This document shows, in pieces, positions 14,570 to 60,131 of a stretch of DNA of 64,000 nucleotides. The position numbers were made by a program, and so were the translations under genes. Source of the DNA: Stegostoma tigrinum (taxonomy: Eukaryota); NCBI RefSeq assembly GCF_030684315.1, contig NC_081390.1, positions 18,810,906 through 18,874,905 of the forward strand. The letters run 5' to 3'. The notes beneath the pieces were generated by a model. The model was not told where the DNA came from and made no database searches. It saw nothing but the letters and a program-made list of their open reading frames with translations. The number at the start of each line of letters is the position of its first letter. Within the stretch, counting starts at the first letter, position 1.

Positions 14570-14870
14570 CAGAGGCGCGCTCAAGAGAACACGACTGACA
14601 CTATGGACTGAGAATTTCCCCCCCAAATAATTACATAGCCCCTCTGAGATGACTCAGTCTTTCAAAATAAAGTCCCCGCACTTCCTTCTTCAACTTTACA
14701 ATGCAGATAATATCAAGGCTACAACTGAACAAATTCCACGTCCTCTTTTTCCACCGTCTAATTTGTTGCTTTAGCTTCTGACGTTGTGATGGGCGGGTGG
14801 TATTGAGTAGGAAGGTCAGCTGAATAGATTTACGTCTATTTTAGTATACCGAAAAAAACAGGGCGGACGA
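14570..14870 (+). promoter_or_regulatory. Putative TATA-less promoter of ANXA11
   Basis: Local CpG enrichment in non-repeat sequence (~14400-15450); GC boxes GGGCGG at 14791-14796 and 14861-14866, half-CRE TGACGT 14779-14784, AP-1 TGACTCA 14650-14656; followed by a good splice donor. Confidence 0.55.
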
Positions 14871-14925
14871 GCTAAGAAGAGGAAGAAGTCTGCGGAACTT
14901 GCTGTACGGATCAAGCGCCTTGCAG
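14870..14925 (+). other. ANXA11: Putative non-coding exon 1 of ANXA11 (start approximate)
   Basis: CAG|GTAGGT donor at 14925/14926 within the CpG-rich segment, no ATG in the putative exon; annexin genes typically have a 5' non-coding exon. Linkage to the 44-kb exon is inference. Confidence 0.5.
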
Positions 14926-16279
14926 GTAGGTGAAAATACCATCCCGATCAAAATCTGATTTGTTTTCTTTCCCGAAACAATGTATCAGTTCGTCCTCGAT
15001 GTAATTGCTCTGCTCATTCTCTCTCTCCCCGGCAAAGCACATTCGCTAAACATCGCAGCTCCTGGTTTGAAACGGATTATGGTTGTGCTGGGGTGGGACA
15101 GGGGTGTGTTTGGTTGGGGTGCTGGTATGGGGATCGATGCTGGCGTGAATCTATATCCCAGTGATTAAAAGACGCTTGAAACTCACAAGGAGCAAGGAGA
15201 TGGGCAACTTGCCAGCTCTCCTGTTCCCTTGCAGTTTCTTTTTATGATGACCATCGCCCGTTTGAAGCCTTTCCTTTTTTTAAGTATCTAGTGTGGCGAC
15301 ACTTTCTCTGAAAGCAATGCCTATCACTTAATTTCTGATTTCAGGAAAGCCAATTGATTACATCGTCTAGTGTCGACTGATCGACTTGAGAGTCCTGCAG
15401 TTCTCCTGAACAGTAAACCGCAAGCGTGTGTATCTGTGTAAAACTGTTGATTGTTTTCCCCTCATATTCTGGTCCAGTCTTGAGAATGCATTCTACTTGG
15501 CACAGAAATGATGAGCGTGTTTTAGAGAAAAAAAATCTATCAACCTATTTAGACGTCTGACAGTTCTGTAGCCATTGAATCTTAAAGTGATAATTGAAGC
15601 CTTGTGGTCTAGAAATAGGAGCACTAACAATTTGTTACAAGATGCTCAAGTCTTTTTTAATGACAATATTAGCTAATATTAATAATAATATTAGATAATA
15701 TCAGAGGGGAATCTTGAACATGATCACATTTACCATCTTCTGGGTATTAAGGAGTGGGTCTGGTCTCCTGTTTTAATTTTTAGCAAAGTTATAGATTTTT
15801 TAAAAAAAACTCGCCTCTTTTGACATGTCATGACGCACCTCTGGAGCAGATGGGACTTGAACCTGGATGTTTTTTGGCTAGAAGCAGGAATGCTACCACT
15901 CTGCAACAAGAGCTTCAAGCACATGTTATAAGACAATATGAATCTTTTGAAGGGGATGTGACAAATTGCGCAGCTCAAACAGCCTGTGTAAGCATACCCA
16001 GCACCTTCAGGGTGTTAAGGTGTAGTTCTGCCCTACTGCTTTCATTTAAACAAGTTATTGAATGGAATTATCAGCTTCACCTCACATTGAATGGGATGAA
16101 TCATTTATAAAATACTGGATTAGCCTCAATTTCCTTCAGTCCCAGTTAGCCCAGCATTTGTTGTGCGTCCCTAGTTGTCCTTTCAAAGGCTTGTTAAGAG
16201 TCATCTATGTTCCTATGGGCCTGGAGTCACATGTAGGCCAGACCCAGGTAAGGACAGTTGAGTTGTTGCCCAAAAGGAC

Positions 16280-21246: not shown

Positions 21247-21715
21247 CAAAAATACCGAACATATCCCTTACTCCCATTCTAAACACCGGCTCTAACAATG
21301 AGAATGGAAAAATACTTAAATCACCAAACGAAGAAAATAAAACAGCCATTACGATCCATCATTCTAACAATGTCAGAAAATATTCCAACTTCCGGAAGTG
21401 ATGTATTTTTCCCTCTGTTGAAATTCTTTCCTTATGATCCTTTGATCTGCTGGGATGTGGGAGCGTCAGGTTCAGAAAGAAATAACTAAAATTAAACCTT
21501 TCCTTGTAATGACATAAACAGAAGCAGACTCCTTTAAAATGTTCTCATGGCAAAGTAGGGTTTTTCTTTGTTCTCTCTCTGGTGCCGACCAAGAAAAAGA
21601 AGCCCTTCTAATGTCAGAGATAATGGGAACTGCAGATGCTGGAGACTCCAAGATAATAAAATGTGAGGCTGGATGAACACAGCAGGCCAAGCAGCATCCC
21701 AGGAGCACAAAAGCT

Positions 21716-21743
21716 GACGTTTCGGGCCTAGACCCTTCATCAG
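21716..21743 (-). ncRNA. Minimal type I hammerhead ribozyme motif (family A, mirror copy)
   Basis: Reverse complement of 22764-22791. Confidence 0.55.
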
Positions 21744-22763
21744 AGAGGGGGATGGGGGGAGGGAACTGGAATAAATAGGGAGAGAGGGGGAGGCGGACCG
21801 AAGATGGAGAGCAAAGAAGATAGGTGGAGAGGGTGTAGGTGGGGAGGTAGGGAGGGGATAGGTCAGTCCAGGGAAGACGGACAGGTCAAGGAGGTGGGAT
21901 GAGGTTAGTAGGTAGCTGGGGGTGCGGCTGGGGGTGGGAGGAAGGGATGGGTGAGAGGAAGAACCGGTTAGGGAGGCAGAGACAGGTTGGACTGGTTTTG
22001 GGATGCAGTGGGTGGGGGGGAAGAGCTGGGCTGGTTGTGTGGTGCAGTGGGGGGAGGGGATGAACTGGGCTGGTTTAGGGATGCAGTGGGGGAAGGGGAG
22101 ATTTTGAAACTGGTGAAGTCCACATTGATACCATATGGCTGCAGGGTTCCCAGGCGGAATATGAGTTGCTGTAATGCTTGGGGACCGCTTTGCAGAACAC
22201 CTCCGCTCAGTCCGCAACAAACAACTGCACCTCCCAGTCGCAAACCATTTCCACTCCCCCTCCCATTCTCTTGATGACATGTCCATCATGGGCCTCCTGC
22301 ACTGCCACAATGATGCCACCCGAAGGTTGCAGGAACAGCAACTCATATTCCGCCTGGGAACCCTGCAGCCATATGGTATCAATGTGGACTTCACCAGTTT
22401 CAAAATCTCCCCTTCCCCCACTGCATCCCTAAACCAGCCCAGTTCATCCCCTCCCCCCACTGCACCACACAACCAGCCCAGCTCTTCCCCCCCACCCACT
22501 GCATCCCAAAACCAGTCCAACCTGTCTCTGCCTCCCTAACCGGTTCTTCCTCTCACCCATCCCTTCCTCCCACCCCCAGCCGCACCCCCAGCTACCTACT
22601 AACCTCATCCCACCTCCTTGACCTGTCCGTCTTCCCTGGACTGACCTATCCCCTCCCTACCTCCCCACCTACACCCTCTCCACCTATCTTCTTTGCTCTC
22701 CATCTTCGGTCCGCCTCCCCCTCTCTCCCTATTTATTCCAGTTCCCTCCCCCCATCCCCCTCT

Positions 22764-22791
22764 CTGATGAAGGGTCTAGGCCCGAAACGTC
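22764..22791 (+). ncRNA. Minimal type I hammerhead ribozyme motif (family A)
   Basis: CTGATGA-A-GGGT-CTAG-GCCC-GAAA-CG-TC: both catalytic-core boxes, 4-bp helix II, palindromic loopless helix III (ACGT), GUC cleavage triplet; helix I only 2 bp (CT/AG). Activity untested. Confidence 0.55.
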
Positions 22792-23875
22792 AGCTTTTGT
22801 GCTCCTGGGATGCTGCTTGGCCTGCTGTGTTCATCCAGCCTCACATTTTATTATCTTGGAGCCCTTCTAATGTCTTCAGTTGTGTCAGACAGCCCTGTAG
22901 TTTCTGGCAGAACTAGGAAAGCCAAGAATCAGAATTTAATGGAGAGAAAAATATCGCTGATCATTACATTGGCTAGAAAGCAATGGGAATAGTGGGAGCT
23001 CATCAGTTTATGTGAGGCCCTGCAAGGAACCACTGTGTTACTCCAACCAATCACGTCACCCTAATGGACATCTGTTTTTGTCCAGGACAAGGTGGTTCAT
23101 TATCTAACTTTAGGAGCACAACAGGGGATATATACTATGTGAGTCATGGGTGGCTTGTAGAATCCCAAAATTGTGATCGCGTGGAAGGAGGCCATTCAGC
23201 CCATGAAAACTAAACCAGTTCTAATACCCAGTGCTAGTTTTCTGCCTTTTACTCCTATCCCTTCATGCCATCTGATTATCTGACGCCCTCTTGATGCTTT
23301 GATCGTGGATCAACTTTACCTTTGATATTCCAGAGGAGGTGGATTTCTGGCCTGGAATGGATGCTTGGGTATTTCAGTGAAGAAAATTGCCACCATCGCA
23401 AATACGTTTTGGTTCATCCAGTAAATCATGGAAGAATGTTGGAATCAGTCCCAAATCAATCCCCTCCGATTCTGTTTATTTCTCTTAAGCAAGTATCTCA
23501 TTGAAATAATCTTTTAGCTTTAGTTTTGGTCTGTACGCAGTCAATGGACTGAGCAGTGTTTTTGTGAAACACAAAGATCAGGCAAGTTCCAGGTTTGACC
23601 TGGGCAGTACTGGCCTCAGCTGGGGATGCAATCGACTATTGTGTGTGACCTTGGTGTCTCTGCATGTGCATCGAGAAGCAGAGGGAAAAAAAAACCCAGC
23701 CAGGTCTCCTCTGTGAGCTTCCAATCAAAGTGAATCAAAACCTCACCCTGGCATTTTGCATGCATCATTCTTGTATGAAGAATGTTTCACAAGCTCTGTA
23801 CCTGTGCCCTCTTGTTGATTCCTCGTTCTTTCAGCTCTCCTCTCCTCACAACGCTGCGAGCCTACACTCTGGCAT

Positions 23876-24050: not shown

Positions 24051-26349
24051 GCATCTATACTCTGGAATTACCTCATTCTTTCAGAGTCTATTTAGTGAAA
24101 TATGATCAACCCTTCCAAATGCTTCATCTGTTTTTCAGGAGTGCATGACCTTTACAATGATACTTGGTGGCCAACAGATTTTGCTATAATGCAGCCCTGG
24201 TAATGATACCTTTTTAAGGTTTTGTTCAGGTAACATCAGGAAGCATCTCTGTCCTTGCAGAGTAGTGGGATCTGGGCCAACCTCTCCTGAAAAATTATAG
24301 AAGATAGATGGGGCAATCAAAAATGTCAAAATTTAGAAATTCTACCAAACAGAATTCGAAGGAAGTAAGGACATGAATGGAATTAAAATATGGATCAGTC
24401 AGGTAGGTTTGTGGGTCCAAATGACTTACATTTAGTCCTATATTTCTGTGTGAGACAAGAAATAAGCTTAACACATAAATACAGGAAGTGCATGCCATTG
24501 ATGGGGAGAGTCGTTTTGCTTATTCGTCCATGGGCTGTGTGTGTCGCTGGCTGGGGCAGCATTTATTGCCTGTCACCAGTTGGCCTTGAAAAGGTGCCAA
24601 TGAGCTGCCTTTTCAAACTGTTGCCATCCTTGTGCAGTTGGTAGACTCACAATACTATTGGGAAATTCCAGTGATTTTGAGCCAGTGATACTGAAGGAGA
24701 GGCAAGATGATTCCAAATTAGAAAGGTGGAGGGGGACTTGAAGGGGGTGGTGTTCCCCTATATCTGCTGCCCTTGCCCTCCTTGATGGAGATAGTCGTGG
24801 GTTTGGAAGATGCTGCCTGAGGATCTTTGGTGAATTTCTGTAGCTAATCCTGCTGCCAGTGAGCGTCAGTGGTAGAGGGAGTGGATGCTTGTGGAAAACG
24901 TATTGTCAATATATTCCGCCTTATCTTACGAAGGACTGTAATGTTTAACTTTTAACTTTGTTTCTTTTCTTTTTCTATTTCGCACCTTAAGGTTTTGTGT
25001 CCAGGTAGATTTGTATCTAATGTGGTGCCGGGAATTTTGACATTGTAACTTATCACTGTTTTCATGTATTTCTGTACTTGAGTCCACATGGCAACAAAAT
25101 CTAATTCTAATTCATCACATGAATTCTGCTTGAAGCCAGGTCCTCAGTGCTTTGTCTGTTAACGTTTAATCCTGAACTGTTTCTCTTGGCAGTTTCTAAT
25201 TTCTGGTGATTTGCCATTGCCTTCCACCCTCAAGGGCAGAGAAAGGAGGCAGGTCTTAAGCCTACCTTGGGTGGGATGGGAATTGAACCCTTGCTTTTGG
25301 AATTATTCCGAAGCATGTTCTAATCAACTGAATGTTTCTCTCTCCCACCATGTGTAGTGTTTTTGAAAAGACGAGGGATGCTTGTTTTAACTGAACATAT
25401 ACAGAATGCTTTGCATCATCTGGATTTTTTTGTGGATGATGTTGTGTTAGCATAGGGGAAGCTCTTGCTGACTGTTTTCTTAGTGAGACGGTCAATGTCG
25501 CAAGTTGGTCCGGGGATGAAAGAACAGACCAAAACTAAACCACAGGAGGCAAGTCAGTATTTTCCGACCCTCACCACAAGCTTGCAAGGGTGAGTGGAAA
25601 TTTTGACAGATCGGGTCATTGAAGAGGCTGCATAAGTCAGACAATTGCACATTCATTCAACTCGCCATTAAGCACTGAAGTAATCCTTGTATGTTTACTT
25701 TTAATATAGCAAGTATGACTGCTGGCCAGTGTCCTGTCCCACATTTAAAAATGATTCTGCACTATAAACCCACTCTTTACATTTCCCCTAGGGCTGTGTT
25801 CATGCAGTCTCCCAATCAGCAAACAGGATTTACTCCCATTTTACCTAATGTTGTGGGAACAAACTTCTTTTTGAGTTCACGCCAGTTTTCTTTGTGGGTG
25901 ACAAAAAGATTTGGGTATGAGATGATGCTTCAATACTTAATCTAAGCCAATGGTTTTCAATATTTTCTTTCCCAGAGATCACCTGAAAATACTGAGGCAA
26001 CTCTCCCAGGAATACTGAACCGTCAATTGAAAGAGACCTGCAAATGCCCACATAATAAACCTTGCTAACATTGCAGAAAATGTCTATTAATACTCTACAG
26101 AAACAGGAAGAAGACACTCGTAGCCCAACAAAACCAGGGAAAAATATGTTGCAATTTTAGAAATTGAGAGTGTTCTTCTTTTGAGTGTGTTGGCCATGTC
26201 TGGTGATTCAAAAGTACATTACAGATCTCCTGGCACTCCTTAGCCGTTCTCCACTATCTTGGACAGAATTCCACCCTCAGCCAATACCACTGACAAACAG
26301 CTTGTCTTTATTTGAGGAGTGTATGTCTGCTGTGGCTCACTGTAAGGTT

Positions 26350-37260: not shown

Positions 37261-37547
37261 CTGAGATTACACATCATAGAATCCCTCTAGTGTGGAAACA
37301 GGCCATTTGGCCCATACTTAGCTCTACGGCTATCCTGATGACAAATGCTATTTTCAACTCAACAGTGACAAAATAGCTGGAAGGTTAGTTTTCAGACATT
37401 TCGTCACCATTCTAGGTAACATGATCAGTGAGCCTTCGACAAAGCGCTGGTGTTATGTCCCGCTTTCTATTTATCTGGTTAGGTTTCCTTGGGTTGGTGA
37501 TGTCATTTCCTGTTCTTTCTCAGGGGATGGTAAATTGGCTCCAAATC

Positions 37548-38408
37548 AAACTGCCATTCCTAGATGTCACAGTAGAGCGAACAGCCAATGGGGAACTTCA
37601 AACCAGCGTCTACAGGAAAACAACACATACGGACCAAATACTGAACTACAGGAGCAACCATCCCAACACCCACAAGCGAACCTGCATTAGAACATTATTC
37701 CAACGAGCCACTGCACACTGCAGCACAGAGGAACTACGCAGAGCAGAAGAAAATCACCTATACAGCGTATTCATAAAGAATGGGTACCCTATGAACACAG
37801 TCTGCCGATTCCTCAGCAAGAAACCCAAACAAACAGACAAAATGGGCTCAGAAACCATAACCACGCTCGCCTACATCAAAGACACTTCTGAAATGACTGC
37901 CAGACTACTCGGACCTCTTGGCATCAGGGTAGCCCACAAACCCACCAACACACTGAAACAGCAGCTAATGAACTTCAAAGACCCTATGCAGACAACAAAC
38001 AAAACGAACATCATCTACAAAATACCTTGCAAGAACTGTGGCAAACACTACATTGGACAAACAGGCAGAAAGCTAGCCACCAGGATACATGAACATCAAC
38101 TAGCCACAAAACGACAAGACCCACTATCACTCGAATCCTTACATACAGATGAGGAAGGACACCACTTTGATTGGGACAACACATCCATCCTAGGACAAGC
38201 CAAACAGAGACACGCACGAGAATTCCTAGAAGCATGGCATTCCAACCGGAACTCCATCAACAAACACATTGATATGGAGCCAATCTACCATCCCCTGAGA
38301 AAAAGAACAGGAAATGACATCACCAACCCAAGGAAAGCTAACCAGATAAATAGAAAGCAGGACATAACACCAGCGCTTCGTCGGAGGCTCACTGATGATG
38401 TTACCTAG
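37548..38408 (+). pseudogene. Open but 5'-truncated PLE RT-thumb plus GIY-YIG endonuclease reading frame
   Basis: KLPFLDVTV…SVYRKTTHTDQILNYRSNHP…NGYP…NIIYKIPCKNCGKHYIGQTGRKLATRIHEH…REFLEAWH…SIN; lacks the Neptune Cys linker. Confidence 0.9.
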
Positions 38409-38428
38409 AATGGTGACGAAACATCTGA
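38389..38428 (+). ncRNA. Minimal type I hammerhead ribozyme motif (family B)
   Basis: TCA-CTGATGA-T-GTTACC-TAGAAT-GGTGAC-GAAA-CA-TC-TGA: 3-bp helix I, 6-bp helix II; the inverted copy reads GAAATGTC, implying ancestral GAAACGTC. Confidence 0.6.
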
Positions 38429-38523
38429 AAACTAATCTTCCAGCTCAGCGAGCAAACTCACATCCAGAACCTCAACCTGAGCTAAAATCTTCTCAAAACT
38501 CACTAGTAACAAAATACTTAAGA

Positions 38524-44008: not shown

Positions 44009-44175
44009 AATCTCATTCATTAGCTGTACTGCTGTGGGATGTCCAGACAGTTTAGGACAGATGCTGTATAAATCCAAGTTATTTCACCTTTTCCTTTTGA
44101 GACAGTTGTTGTTGCATTGCCAAGTTGACCTTTTTTTTTCAGATTTGAATTTGTTTTCCTTCTCGGGTTTAAAGG

Positions 44176-44311
44176 ATGAGTTACCCAGGATATCCGCCAG
44201 CCCCAGGAGGGTACCCGCCAGCCCCAGGAGGGTACCCGCCAGCCCCAGGAGGATACCCACCAGCCCCAGGAGGATACCCACCAGCCCCAGGAGGATACCC
44301 ACCTGCACCAG
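44176..44311 (+). CDS. ANXA11: Annexin A11, first coding exon: MSYPGYPPAP(GGYPPAP)5G
   Basis: ATG after pyrimidine tract and AG (44173-44174; alternative AG at 44141-44142); MSYPGYPP start shared by ANXA7/ANXA11; 136 nt, phase 1, donor CAG|GTACCA. Not in the ORF track. Confidence 0.9.
44188..44311 (+). repeat. Coding 21-bp tandem repeat, (GYPPAPG)x6
   Basis: Units GG(A/G)TA(T/C)CC(G/A)CCAGCCCCAGGA read directly. Confidence 0.95.
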
Positions 44312-58420: not shown

Positions 58421-58555
58421 ACTCATGGTCATTGGGACACCCACCCTTTTTTTTTGTTGGAAAAGCAACTGTCCGATGACTGACTGTATCCCAATGAAGA
58501 AATAATGCTGTGATTTTGAATTATTGAATTAACAGAAATCTCTTGTTATCTTCAG

Positions 58556-58942: not shown

Positions 58943-59113
58943 CGCCAGACAGCATTAGAGAAGCAGGAAAGTTGACGTTTTGGGTCGAGACCCTTCTTCA
59001 AAAAATGATTTGAAACATCAACTTTCCCGCTCCTCTGCTGCCTGGCGTGTTGCATTCCTCCAGCTCCATACTGTGTTATCTCTGACTCTAGCATCTGCAC
59101 TTTTTACTATCTC
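58943..59113. mobile_element. PLE family A-related hairpin with 14-bp TSD
   Basis: GCAGGAAAGTTGACGTTT … AAACATCAACTTTCCCGC inverted; flanks TGCGTTCACTGTTA (58929-58942) / TGCATTCACTGTTA (59114-59127). Confidence 0.72.
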
Positions 59114-60131
59114 TGCATTCACTGTTATATGGCTCAACAACTAAGGCAGCTATTTTGTACATAACAACATCCCATGAACAACAAGAAAAGTGATAGGGCA
59201 TTATTTTTGGGTGGCAGCATCTGAGGTATAAATGTTGACCAGGATACGGAGGAAAGCTCTCTGCTATTTGAGTTAGATGTGCGTTAATTCTATCATATGG
59301 CATGAAGTTAATGGGCCGTATAGCTTCCTTCTGTGACATAGTGACACGTTACCTCAGCACCATCGCCTCCCCAACAAGACCCTATTTCACCAGACTAGTA
59401 ATCCAGGGCTGATTGGTTAGCTAGTTTGTTCTGCAGAACAGCGTAGGTTCACTTCCTGTACTGGCTGAAGTCACCTCAATGGTCCCACTGTCTTGACCTC
59501 TCCCCTTGTCTGAGGTGTGGTGACCCTTGGGTTCTACTTCCAGGAGTCTTGTCTCTAATGAGAGAGCCCTATGGGACAAGAGTGTCATTTTTTACTTTAA
59601 TTGTGACATTTTGTTCGTCCAAGTATGTTTTTGGCTCCTTTTAACTGCTTAACTGATTTGGAATTCGCACTCTGATATCAAAGTGGGTCTAAAAAATGAC
59701 TTTAATTAGACTTCAGCTGTTATTTTTACACTGGCAATATTCTAAATTCCCATTAGCAAGTGTTGTACAAAATAGTGGCAAAAACAAAGATTGACTGATA
59801 GCTCAGGAAGCTGCTCACAAAAGCAGCATTATCTTTCAGCTAAGGTAATAAAATCAATCTACATATTTACAGCTTATTTTGTGGTGATTTGAAGTTATGT
59901 TTAATAAAAAAATAAAGAAAATGTCCTGAACCTTGTTGGGGGGGGGTCAAAGAAGCTGCAATAGAGAACAATGTTGAAATCATTTTCATACGTGACTCAG
60001 CATACTCTAATTGCAGAGCATTTCTAGCGGGTGATTTACTTGGAATTTTTTTTGAATAAATTTCGAATGCAATGTTTGATCGGGATGTAACAGTGGGTAC
60101 TACTCTTGATTATGAATTCCTCTGTTCCTAG

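Follow-up and report, generated by a model that had tools for sequence, protein, structure and literature searches.

A young head-to-head Penelope-like insertion in a plausible annexin intron of Stegostoma tigrinum and its probable origin by priming of both target strands on one RNA

The window analyzed here is a stretch of 64,000 nucleotides from Stegostoma tigrinum (contig NC_081390.1, forward-strand positions 18,810,906 to 18,874,905), and it carries exons of an annexin gene on the plus strand. The first coding exon (MSYPGYPPAPGG...) occupies 44175-44311, with its ATG at 44176. Further annexin exons near 58553 and 61339 match PDB entry 6tu2 best, ahead of annexin A7; we take this entry, whose file title reads 'Annexin', to be annexin A11. 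Upstream of the ATG, the strongest non-repeat CpG-rich stretch spans approximately 14.2-15.6 kb and contains GC boxes at 14791 and 14861, a CpG observed/expected ratio of up to 0.94, and a strong donor at 14926. The CpG-rich stretch with this donor is likely, from its sequence features, to be the first exon of the ANXA11-like gene, and a candidate non-coding exon with an undefined start is placed at 14850-14925 on the plus strand. A second donor-like site lies at 24403. With the candidate first exon upstream and the ATG exon downstream, it is plausible that the inverted unit described below, at 21601-22874, sits in the 5'-UTR intron (intron 1) of ANXA11.

The unit consists of two 5'-truncated 3' ends of a Penelope-like element, arranged head to head inside one 15-bp target-site duplication. 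When the window is compared with itself, 21646-22172 and 22335-22861 are exact reverse complements (527/527, ungapped), a match far beyond chance, with the first mismatches immediately beyond the arms at 21645 and 22173 and a spacer of 162 bp between them. The element 3' ends of both arms face outward, and the 15-mer AGCCCTTCTAATGTC has two copies only in the window, at 21601-21615 and 22860-22874, and none on the opposite strand. The preliminary description had claimed a perfect 527-bp inverted repeat, a 162-bp spacer with outward-facing 3' ends, and a single 15-bp duplication around the whole unit, and each of these features is seen here.

The two arms differ at both of their ends. Positions in the element are given as the distance d from the tail end, with the natural copy L067 as reference. 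The left arm (21616-22172, minus strand) is a 557-nt 3' end running from d556 to d0, 100% identical to L067 over 557 nt, and it alone carries a 30-nt tail (21616-21645, minus strand), a 3' extension of the element that maps onto the final 30 nt of L067. The right arm (22176-22861, plus strand) is 686 nt long, runs from d715 to d30 with 99.9% identity to L067, and lacks the tail; it starts at the 3' stem of a small element hairpin (d740-700), and its last 2 nt are common to the arm and the right copy of the duplication. Three extra bases (22173-22175) at the head-to-head joint match neither arm in the reference. It follows from this mapping that the spacer is element sequence reached by the right arm alone (22176-22334, 159 nt), together with the 3 extra bases.

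The coding content of the window copy is restricted to the end of the element. A plus-strand segment at 22174-22539 encodes the C-terminal part of a GIY-YIG endonuclease and includes the stop codon of that frame; its translation matches the C terminus of the L014 open reading frame (ORF) and amounts to only the C-terminal 121 amino acids of the element ORF, a piece for which a Pfam search gave no match. Downstream of this frame, the right arm is a C-rich 3' region, as read from its translation. Near-identical longer copies (L014, L067, and L105) have a single long frame with a reverse transcriptase and, at the C terminus, a GIY-YIG endonuclease, and in L014 both Pfam matches, RVT_1 (E=0.025) and GIY-YIG (E=0.0011), are weak and below curated cut-offs. 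The GIY-YIG core of L014 has two internal cysteines and VIYCIHCTRCGFLYIG followed by two histidines, and a C-x4-CxxC linker, CNRRKCYTC, lies between the reverse transcriptase and the endonuclease. A CX2-5CxxC linker is common to Neptune and Nematis and missing in Penelope/Poseidon (PMC8557442), and L014 also shows the endonuclease domain by which that paper recognizes endonuclease-bearing Penelope-like elements. By these published criteria, domain order and motifs identify the element as Neptune or Nematis type; of the two we favor Neptune, the vertebrate clade for which a CxxC-type linker is described (10.64898/2026.07.22.740005, PMC4209133). At 37375-38504, the window contains another inverted unit, flanked by a 12-bp near-duplication. 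It belongs to a second Penelope-like family that lacks the cysteine linker and would on that ground be of Poseidon type.

Two noncoding features of the element are relevant to its RNA. A minimal hammerhead-like motif, read from the sequence against the description in PMC4209133 (CUGAUGA, stem II, GAAA, palindromic ACGU, and C), is placed at 22764-22791 on the plus strand, and its mirror copy is read at 21716-21743 on the minus strand. An Rfam search of 21400-23100 returned no hammerhead family and one weak unrelated match, and the predicted lowest-energy fold of the motif region differs from the hammerhead fold. A TATA-like box at 22730-22736 (plus strand) starts at d161, 30 nt before the short-arm starts, and is a candidate pLTR promoter. 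Most short arms (38 of 44) have their 5' ends in the interval d116-134, some 30 nt past the box, and this cluster likely marks the 5' end of the RNA. Three unpaired or complex arms begin at d146-148, and at L107 (7637-7790) both arms of a short pair start at d99, beside the predicted ribozyme cut, making up the 2 of 44 short-arm ends found there.

To place the unit in the context of its family, loci were gathered from the genome by similarity with three queries, not randomly, a selection that inflates the correlation between arm lengths, and pairs were defined by both 3' ends lying 100 nt or less from the tail end. One tailed and one tailless end were found in 63 of the 65 head-to-head candidates. 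The two that depart from this are L049, where one insertion is nested in another, and L077, a complex unit with outer ends that still follow the one-tail rule. After removal of the inner L049 pair, L077, and a mis-pair at 1619 of L020, and addition of the outer L049 pair, the rule held in all 63 pairs of the cleaned set. By hand count, 35 of these 63 were selected other than via the tail, so that two tailless ends could have been observed among them. Two 'tailed' arms, in the tandem-plus-inverted units L105 and L108, continue into the tandem unit. The tailless ends peak at d35-36. A target duplication was found at 56 of the 65 candidates and measures 11-19 bp (14-15 bp in 34 of the 56). Joints carry inserts of 1-7 nt in 16 of 62 cases and overlaps of at least 2 nt in 22 of 62, and several (L038, L039, L042, L066, and L079) are palindromic and free of a spacer.

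The head-to-head pair is the commonest product among the family copies examined. Two-sided copying is not obligatory, as single-arm insertions with duplications make up 9 of 22 sites on contig C1. The paired share of long insertions is similar in young (13/19) and older (13/22) copies, by a hand count of small numbers. Forty loci count as young by their identity across the final 120 nt, and in 11 of them the arms measure at least 400 bp and match at 99.5% or more. The idea that the window unit is exceptional is not supported: its layout is published, it is the commonest product among the copies examined, and long, nearly perfect arms occur at these 11 equally young loci.

Several other units illustrate the range of structures in the family. 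L066 (651-5442; G000:C14, about 77432950-77437741) is a palindrome far more extreme than the window unit, with arms of approximately 2.4 kb, no spacer, and a 15-bp duplication; its arms show 0 substitutions in 2357 aligned columns, and 99.6% identity with a short indel in another comparison. L105 (3115-9675; G000:C15, near 16.195-16.200 Mb) combines a truncated copy in tandem with a 3691-nt unit and an inverted tailless copy, which is the complete canonical layout. L070 (641-4004; G000:C33, about 4286640-4290003) holds a tandem array with a 307-bp period, the units of which contain the element's last 204 nt and the ribozyme motif; the array is itself arranged as inverted halves, with the tail at one end of the pair and missing at the other, and resembles a non-LTR retrozyme mobilized by the present family. 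L049 (1501-3067) is a case of nesting, in which an arm of a longer inverted pair contains a short palindromic insertion that is itself bounded by a 13-bp duplication. The joints of L019, L023, and L068 (5502-8820) hold several tandem copies of one arm's last 22-37 nt, which suggests repeated template jumps or templated end-joining. The window itself contains two older short palindromic pairs of the same family, at 2159-2375 and 58944-59114, each with one tailless and one tailed end.

The long arm of the window unit is identical to 15 of 89 other arms, spread over 10 other loci. The subfamily to which it belongs is accordingly judged from these sequences to be very young, and the perfect match between its arms needs no special process, as the same sequence is found unchanged at the other 10 loci. 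Between the arms of older pairs the divergence reaches 5.5%, roughly what separates them from the closest other locus, and this pattern shows no trace of conversion between arms. Gene conversion was thus rejected as the source of perfect arms, given that older arms diverge like separate loci and identical arms occur elsewhere.

The preliminary description had also suggested looking for an empty site with one copy of the 15-mer. In four sequencing runs (two samples, one study), a contig covering 21138-21615 runs past the 15-mer without entering the element, continuing for 1027, 1027, 449, and 153 nt that did not map to the element. The right flank is unique from 22875 to the start of a repeat near 23875; in two of the runs the contig measures 478 + 1027 = 1505 nt, and its end at an empty site would be 23901, 27 nt into that repeat. 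This length fits an empty allele with a single 15-mer, which probably exists in the sampled individuals. The contigs examined support only the allele without the insertion, a result to be read with the caveat that contigs can drop a second allele, and the insertion is likely to be polymorphic and absent from some individuals. At position 21256, all four runs have T, at full contig depth, where the assembly has C.

We consider it probable that the unit is one very young insertion of two 5'-truncated 3' ends and that it arose by reverse transcription of a single RNA, with each of the two nicked target strands serving as a primer. The claim that a single very recent Penelope-like insertion had joined both target strands to element 3' ends is supported. 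In such a process, the GIY-YIG endonuclease would nick the strands about 15 nt apart, leaving 3' overhangs; one 3' end would prime at the tail end of the RNA and the other approximately 30-36 nt further 5' on the same molecule, here with 2 nt shared. Synthesis of both cDNAs would then run along a common stretch of template, the strand behind displacing the one ahead, and stop at d556 and d715, and the cDNA ends would be united by end-joining, here with 3 nt added, before the gaps are filled. The arms would be identical through their common template and the lack of time to mutate. Initiation is internal, since element sequence extends beyond the tail in the tandem copies L082 and L088. The peak of tailless ends at d35-36 agrees with results in vitro for PAc, a Poseidon element of Anolis carolinensis, for which cutting and extension affect both strands of the target and reverse transcription begins from two internal positions that flank the tail (PMC11167929). 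The strict one-tail rule is an observation on genomic copies; the anole experiments, as described in PMC11167929, saw no difference in start site between top and bottom strands.

The lengths of paired arms bear on whether one RNA served both strands. The cleaned pairs fall into 22 short-short and 41 long-long pairs and no mixed ones, where 28.6 mixed pairs are expected by permutation (p<1e-4). Of the 36 long pairs, 5 have arms that end within 20 nt of each other, where 1.1 would be expected (p=0.004), and the longer arm is the tailless one in 22 and the tailed one in 10 of the 36 (p=0.05), the remaining 4 lying within 10 nt. A cluster of arm ends at d2810 is the edge of the reference copy, and arms ending there were excluded from the length tests; another at d712-722, beside the small hairpin, was partly produced by the first query. 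The arms of a pair always share minority alleles, and these point to a common source lineage, not to a single RNA molecule, as truly private shared variants are few and the nearest other copy is often as close as the partner arm. Short and long pieces are mixed within the complex unit L077, and L089 is a mixed pair of a long arm and a 147-nt arm that stands outside the count, its left end being beyond the locus.

It is conceivable, if unlikely, that priming was two-sided but that the two arms had separate RNA molecules as templates, for instance one for each dimer subunit. A dimer has been predicted, and both strands are extended in vitro (PMC11167929); identical arms cannot distinguish one RNA from two transcripts of one source, and L089 is a pair of the kind that separate templates would give. 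Separate RNAs would also be expected to yield tail/tail and tailless/tailless pairs, of which there are 0 of 63 each, and many short/long mixtures in place of none, and they leave the matching 5' ends of some long pairs (678/678 and 2433/2434, for example) without a reason. An improbable alternative, proposed for rotifer Penelopes, is that one cDNA or antisense RNA folds into a hairpin, primes itself, and is copied back. PMC3846280 interprets junction palindromes as self-priming on an antisense template, and such a process would account both for matching arm lengths and for the spacer-free palindromic joints listed above. A tailed copy folding back, however, cannot yield a longer tailless arm, as seen in the window unit and in 22 of 36 long pairs, and a tailless copy cannot create a tail; both classes of asymmetry occur, and fold-back leaves the stop of the second end near d35 unexplained. 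As a general route it is contradicted, although it could explain a minority of symmetric units.

We give very little credence to two insertions or a later rearrangement with gene conversion, or to a pre-formed palindromic mini-element moving as a unit. L003, L004, and L005/L103 have joints within a few bases of the window joint, as such a mini-element would; these loci were retrieved by a search with the joint itself, to which their identity is 82-87%, their own joints are different, and in two of them the tail is on the opposite arm. Among 40 scored of 1749 candidates, the exact window joint was found here only, a single duplication encloses the unit, and the divergence within older pairs, like that between loci, argues against homogenized arms. 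A MITE or foldback DNA transposon was rejected as well, in that the ends are offset by 30 nt and, among the 40 scored candidates, joints vary by locus with this one occurring here only. We attach a similarly slight probability to an assembly artefact arising from fold-back reads. Perfect palindromes are hard to assemble, and the contigs speak for the insertion-free allele alone, but a fold-back should give a symmetric product with a mirrored flank. The 30-nt tail and the 159-nt stretch of element, each present on one side alone, and the 15-bp duplication of family-typical length are not what it would leave, and they make it unlikely; such features also recur in older pairs with diverged arms. 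Priming of both strands on one RNA is the reading that we favor.

In relation to the host gene, the double-stranded RNA put forward in the preliminary description is a folding prediction: if transcribed, the unit would fold into a 527-bp helix that would bury the sense ribozyme motif; the predicted folding energy of 21601-22874 is about -1263 kcal/mol. Older inverted matches, with 78-96% identity, are present in the presumed intron 1 as well. Because RNA from introns stays largely in the nucleus, ADAR would be a more plausible partner of an intronic hairpin than MDA5. The insertion is likely to be a neutral passenger.

The window locus itself is ordinary, being one more case of a described Penelope-like layout, and its value is that of a clean and likely polymorphic example from a large young family. 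What its analysis adds is a likely empty allele, the lack of homogenization, and a paired share that is similar in young and older copies. The means by which Penelope-like elements make inverted repeats and tails is left unresolved in PMC8557442 and PMC11167929, as far as those texts go, and the joints of this family bear on the question: the one-tail rule, the missing mixed pairs, and the two-way asymmetry of the arms favor two-sided priming on one RNA over the published idea of self-priming. On balance, we lean towards a broader view, in which an active family of vertebrate Penelope-like elements would use both target strands as primers on one RNA, starting from two fixed positions about 35 nt from each other. 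Most of its new insertions would then be perfect palindromes from the outset, up to 2.4 kb long, and would segregate among individuals and age by plain mutation, neither purged nor homogenized. If this is true, the missing second-strand step and the start of the element's transcription would be naturally recorded in the genome, which would also serve to test how a vertebrate tolerates hairpins that are long and perfect, in its DNA as in its pre-mRNA. Comparing filled with empty alleles in a likely intron could show directly whether a newborn perfect hairpin of 527 bp undergoes editing, alters splicing, or makes the DNA unstable.

The layout of the window unit, head to head with a tail on one arm, is already in print. 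The text and Fig. 2 legend of PMC8557442 describe an inverted 5'-truncated copy beside the 5' end, with a tail of 30-40 bp at one end alone, and PMC3846280 describes such inverted units within one 9-10 bp duplication. The window unit shares with these endonuclease-bearing Penelope-like units the head-to-head copies, the one-end tail, the single duplication, and a candidate hammerhead-like motif in the terminal repeat. It differs from the units described there in having neither a direct pLTR nor a full ORF, both of its arms being truncated and reaching the endonuclease frame, and duplications in this shark family are longer than in the rotifer examples (11-19 versus 8-10 bp). With PAc, as reported in PMC11167929, it has in common internal initiation, two starts flanking the tail, and the presumed cutting and extension of both strands. 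PAc belongs to another clade, and the available text on it leaves later steps open and does not address inverted products; the genomic pairs here use one start site per end, and the long ORF of L105 begins after the tail, not within the ribozyme. A literature search, covering mostly the main texts of openly available journals, gave nothing on one-RNA twin priming for Penelope-like elements and no report of such palindromes in sharks.

The formation of the window unit is likely to resemble LINE-1 twin priming in manner. In the process attributed to Ostertag and Kazazian, both target strands reportedly prime on one RNA, and the likeness extends to an inverted joint with short overlaps and to the single duplication. 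LINE-1 is said to invert with little duplicated sequence, whereas here, with primers lying about 35 nt from each other, almost the whole stretch would be copied by both and would form a long palindrome. A LINE-1-type twin-priming product as such was rejected, with poly(A) absent, arms overlapping by 527 nt, and an element that is Penelope-like. Inverted Alu pairs in human introns can likewise form double-stranded RNA if transcribed, and they arise from separate insertions and are imperfect. Both are intronic inverted repeats, but the window unit would stem from one event and would have been perfect from the start.
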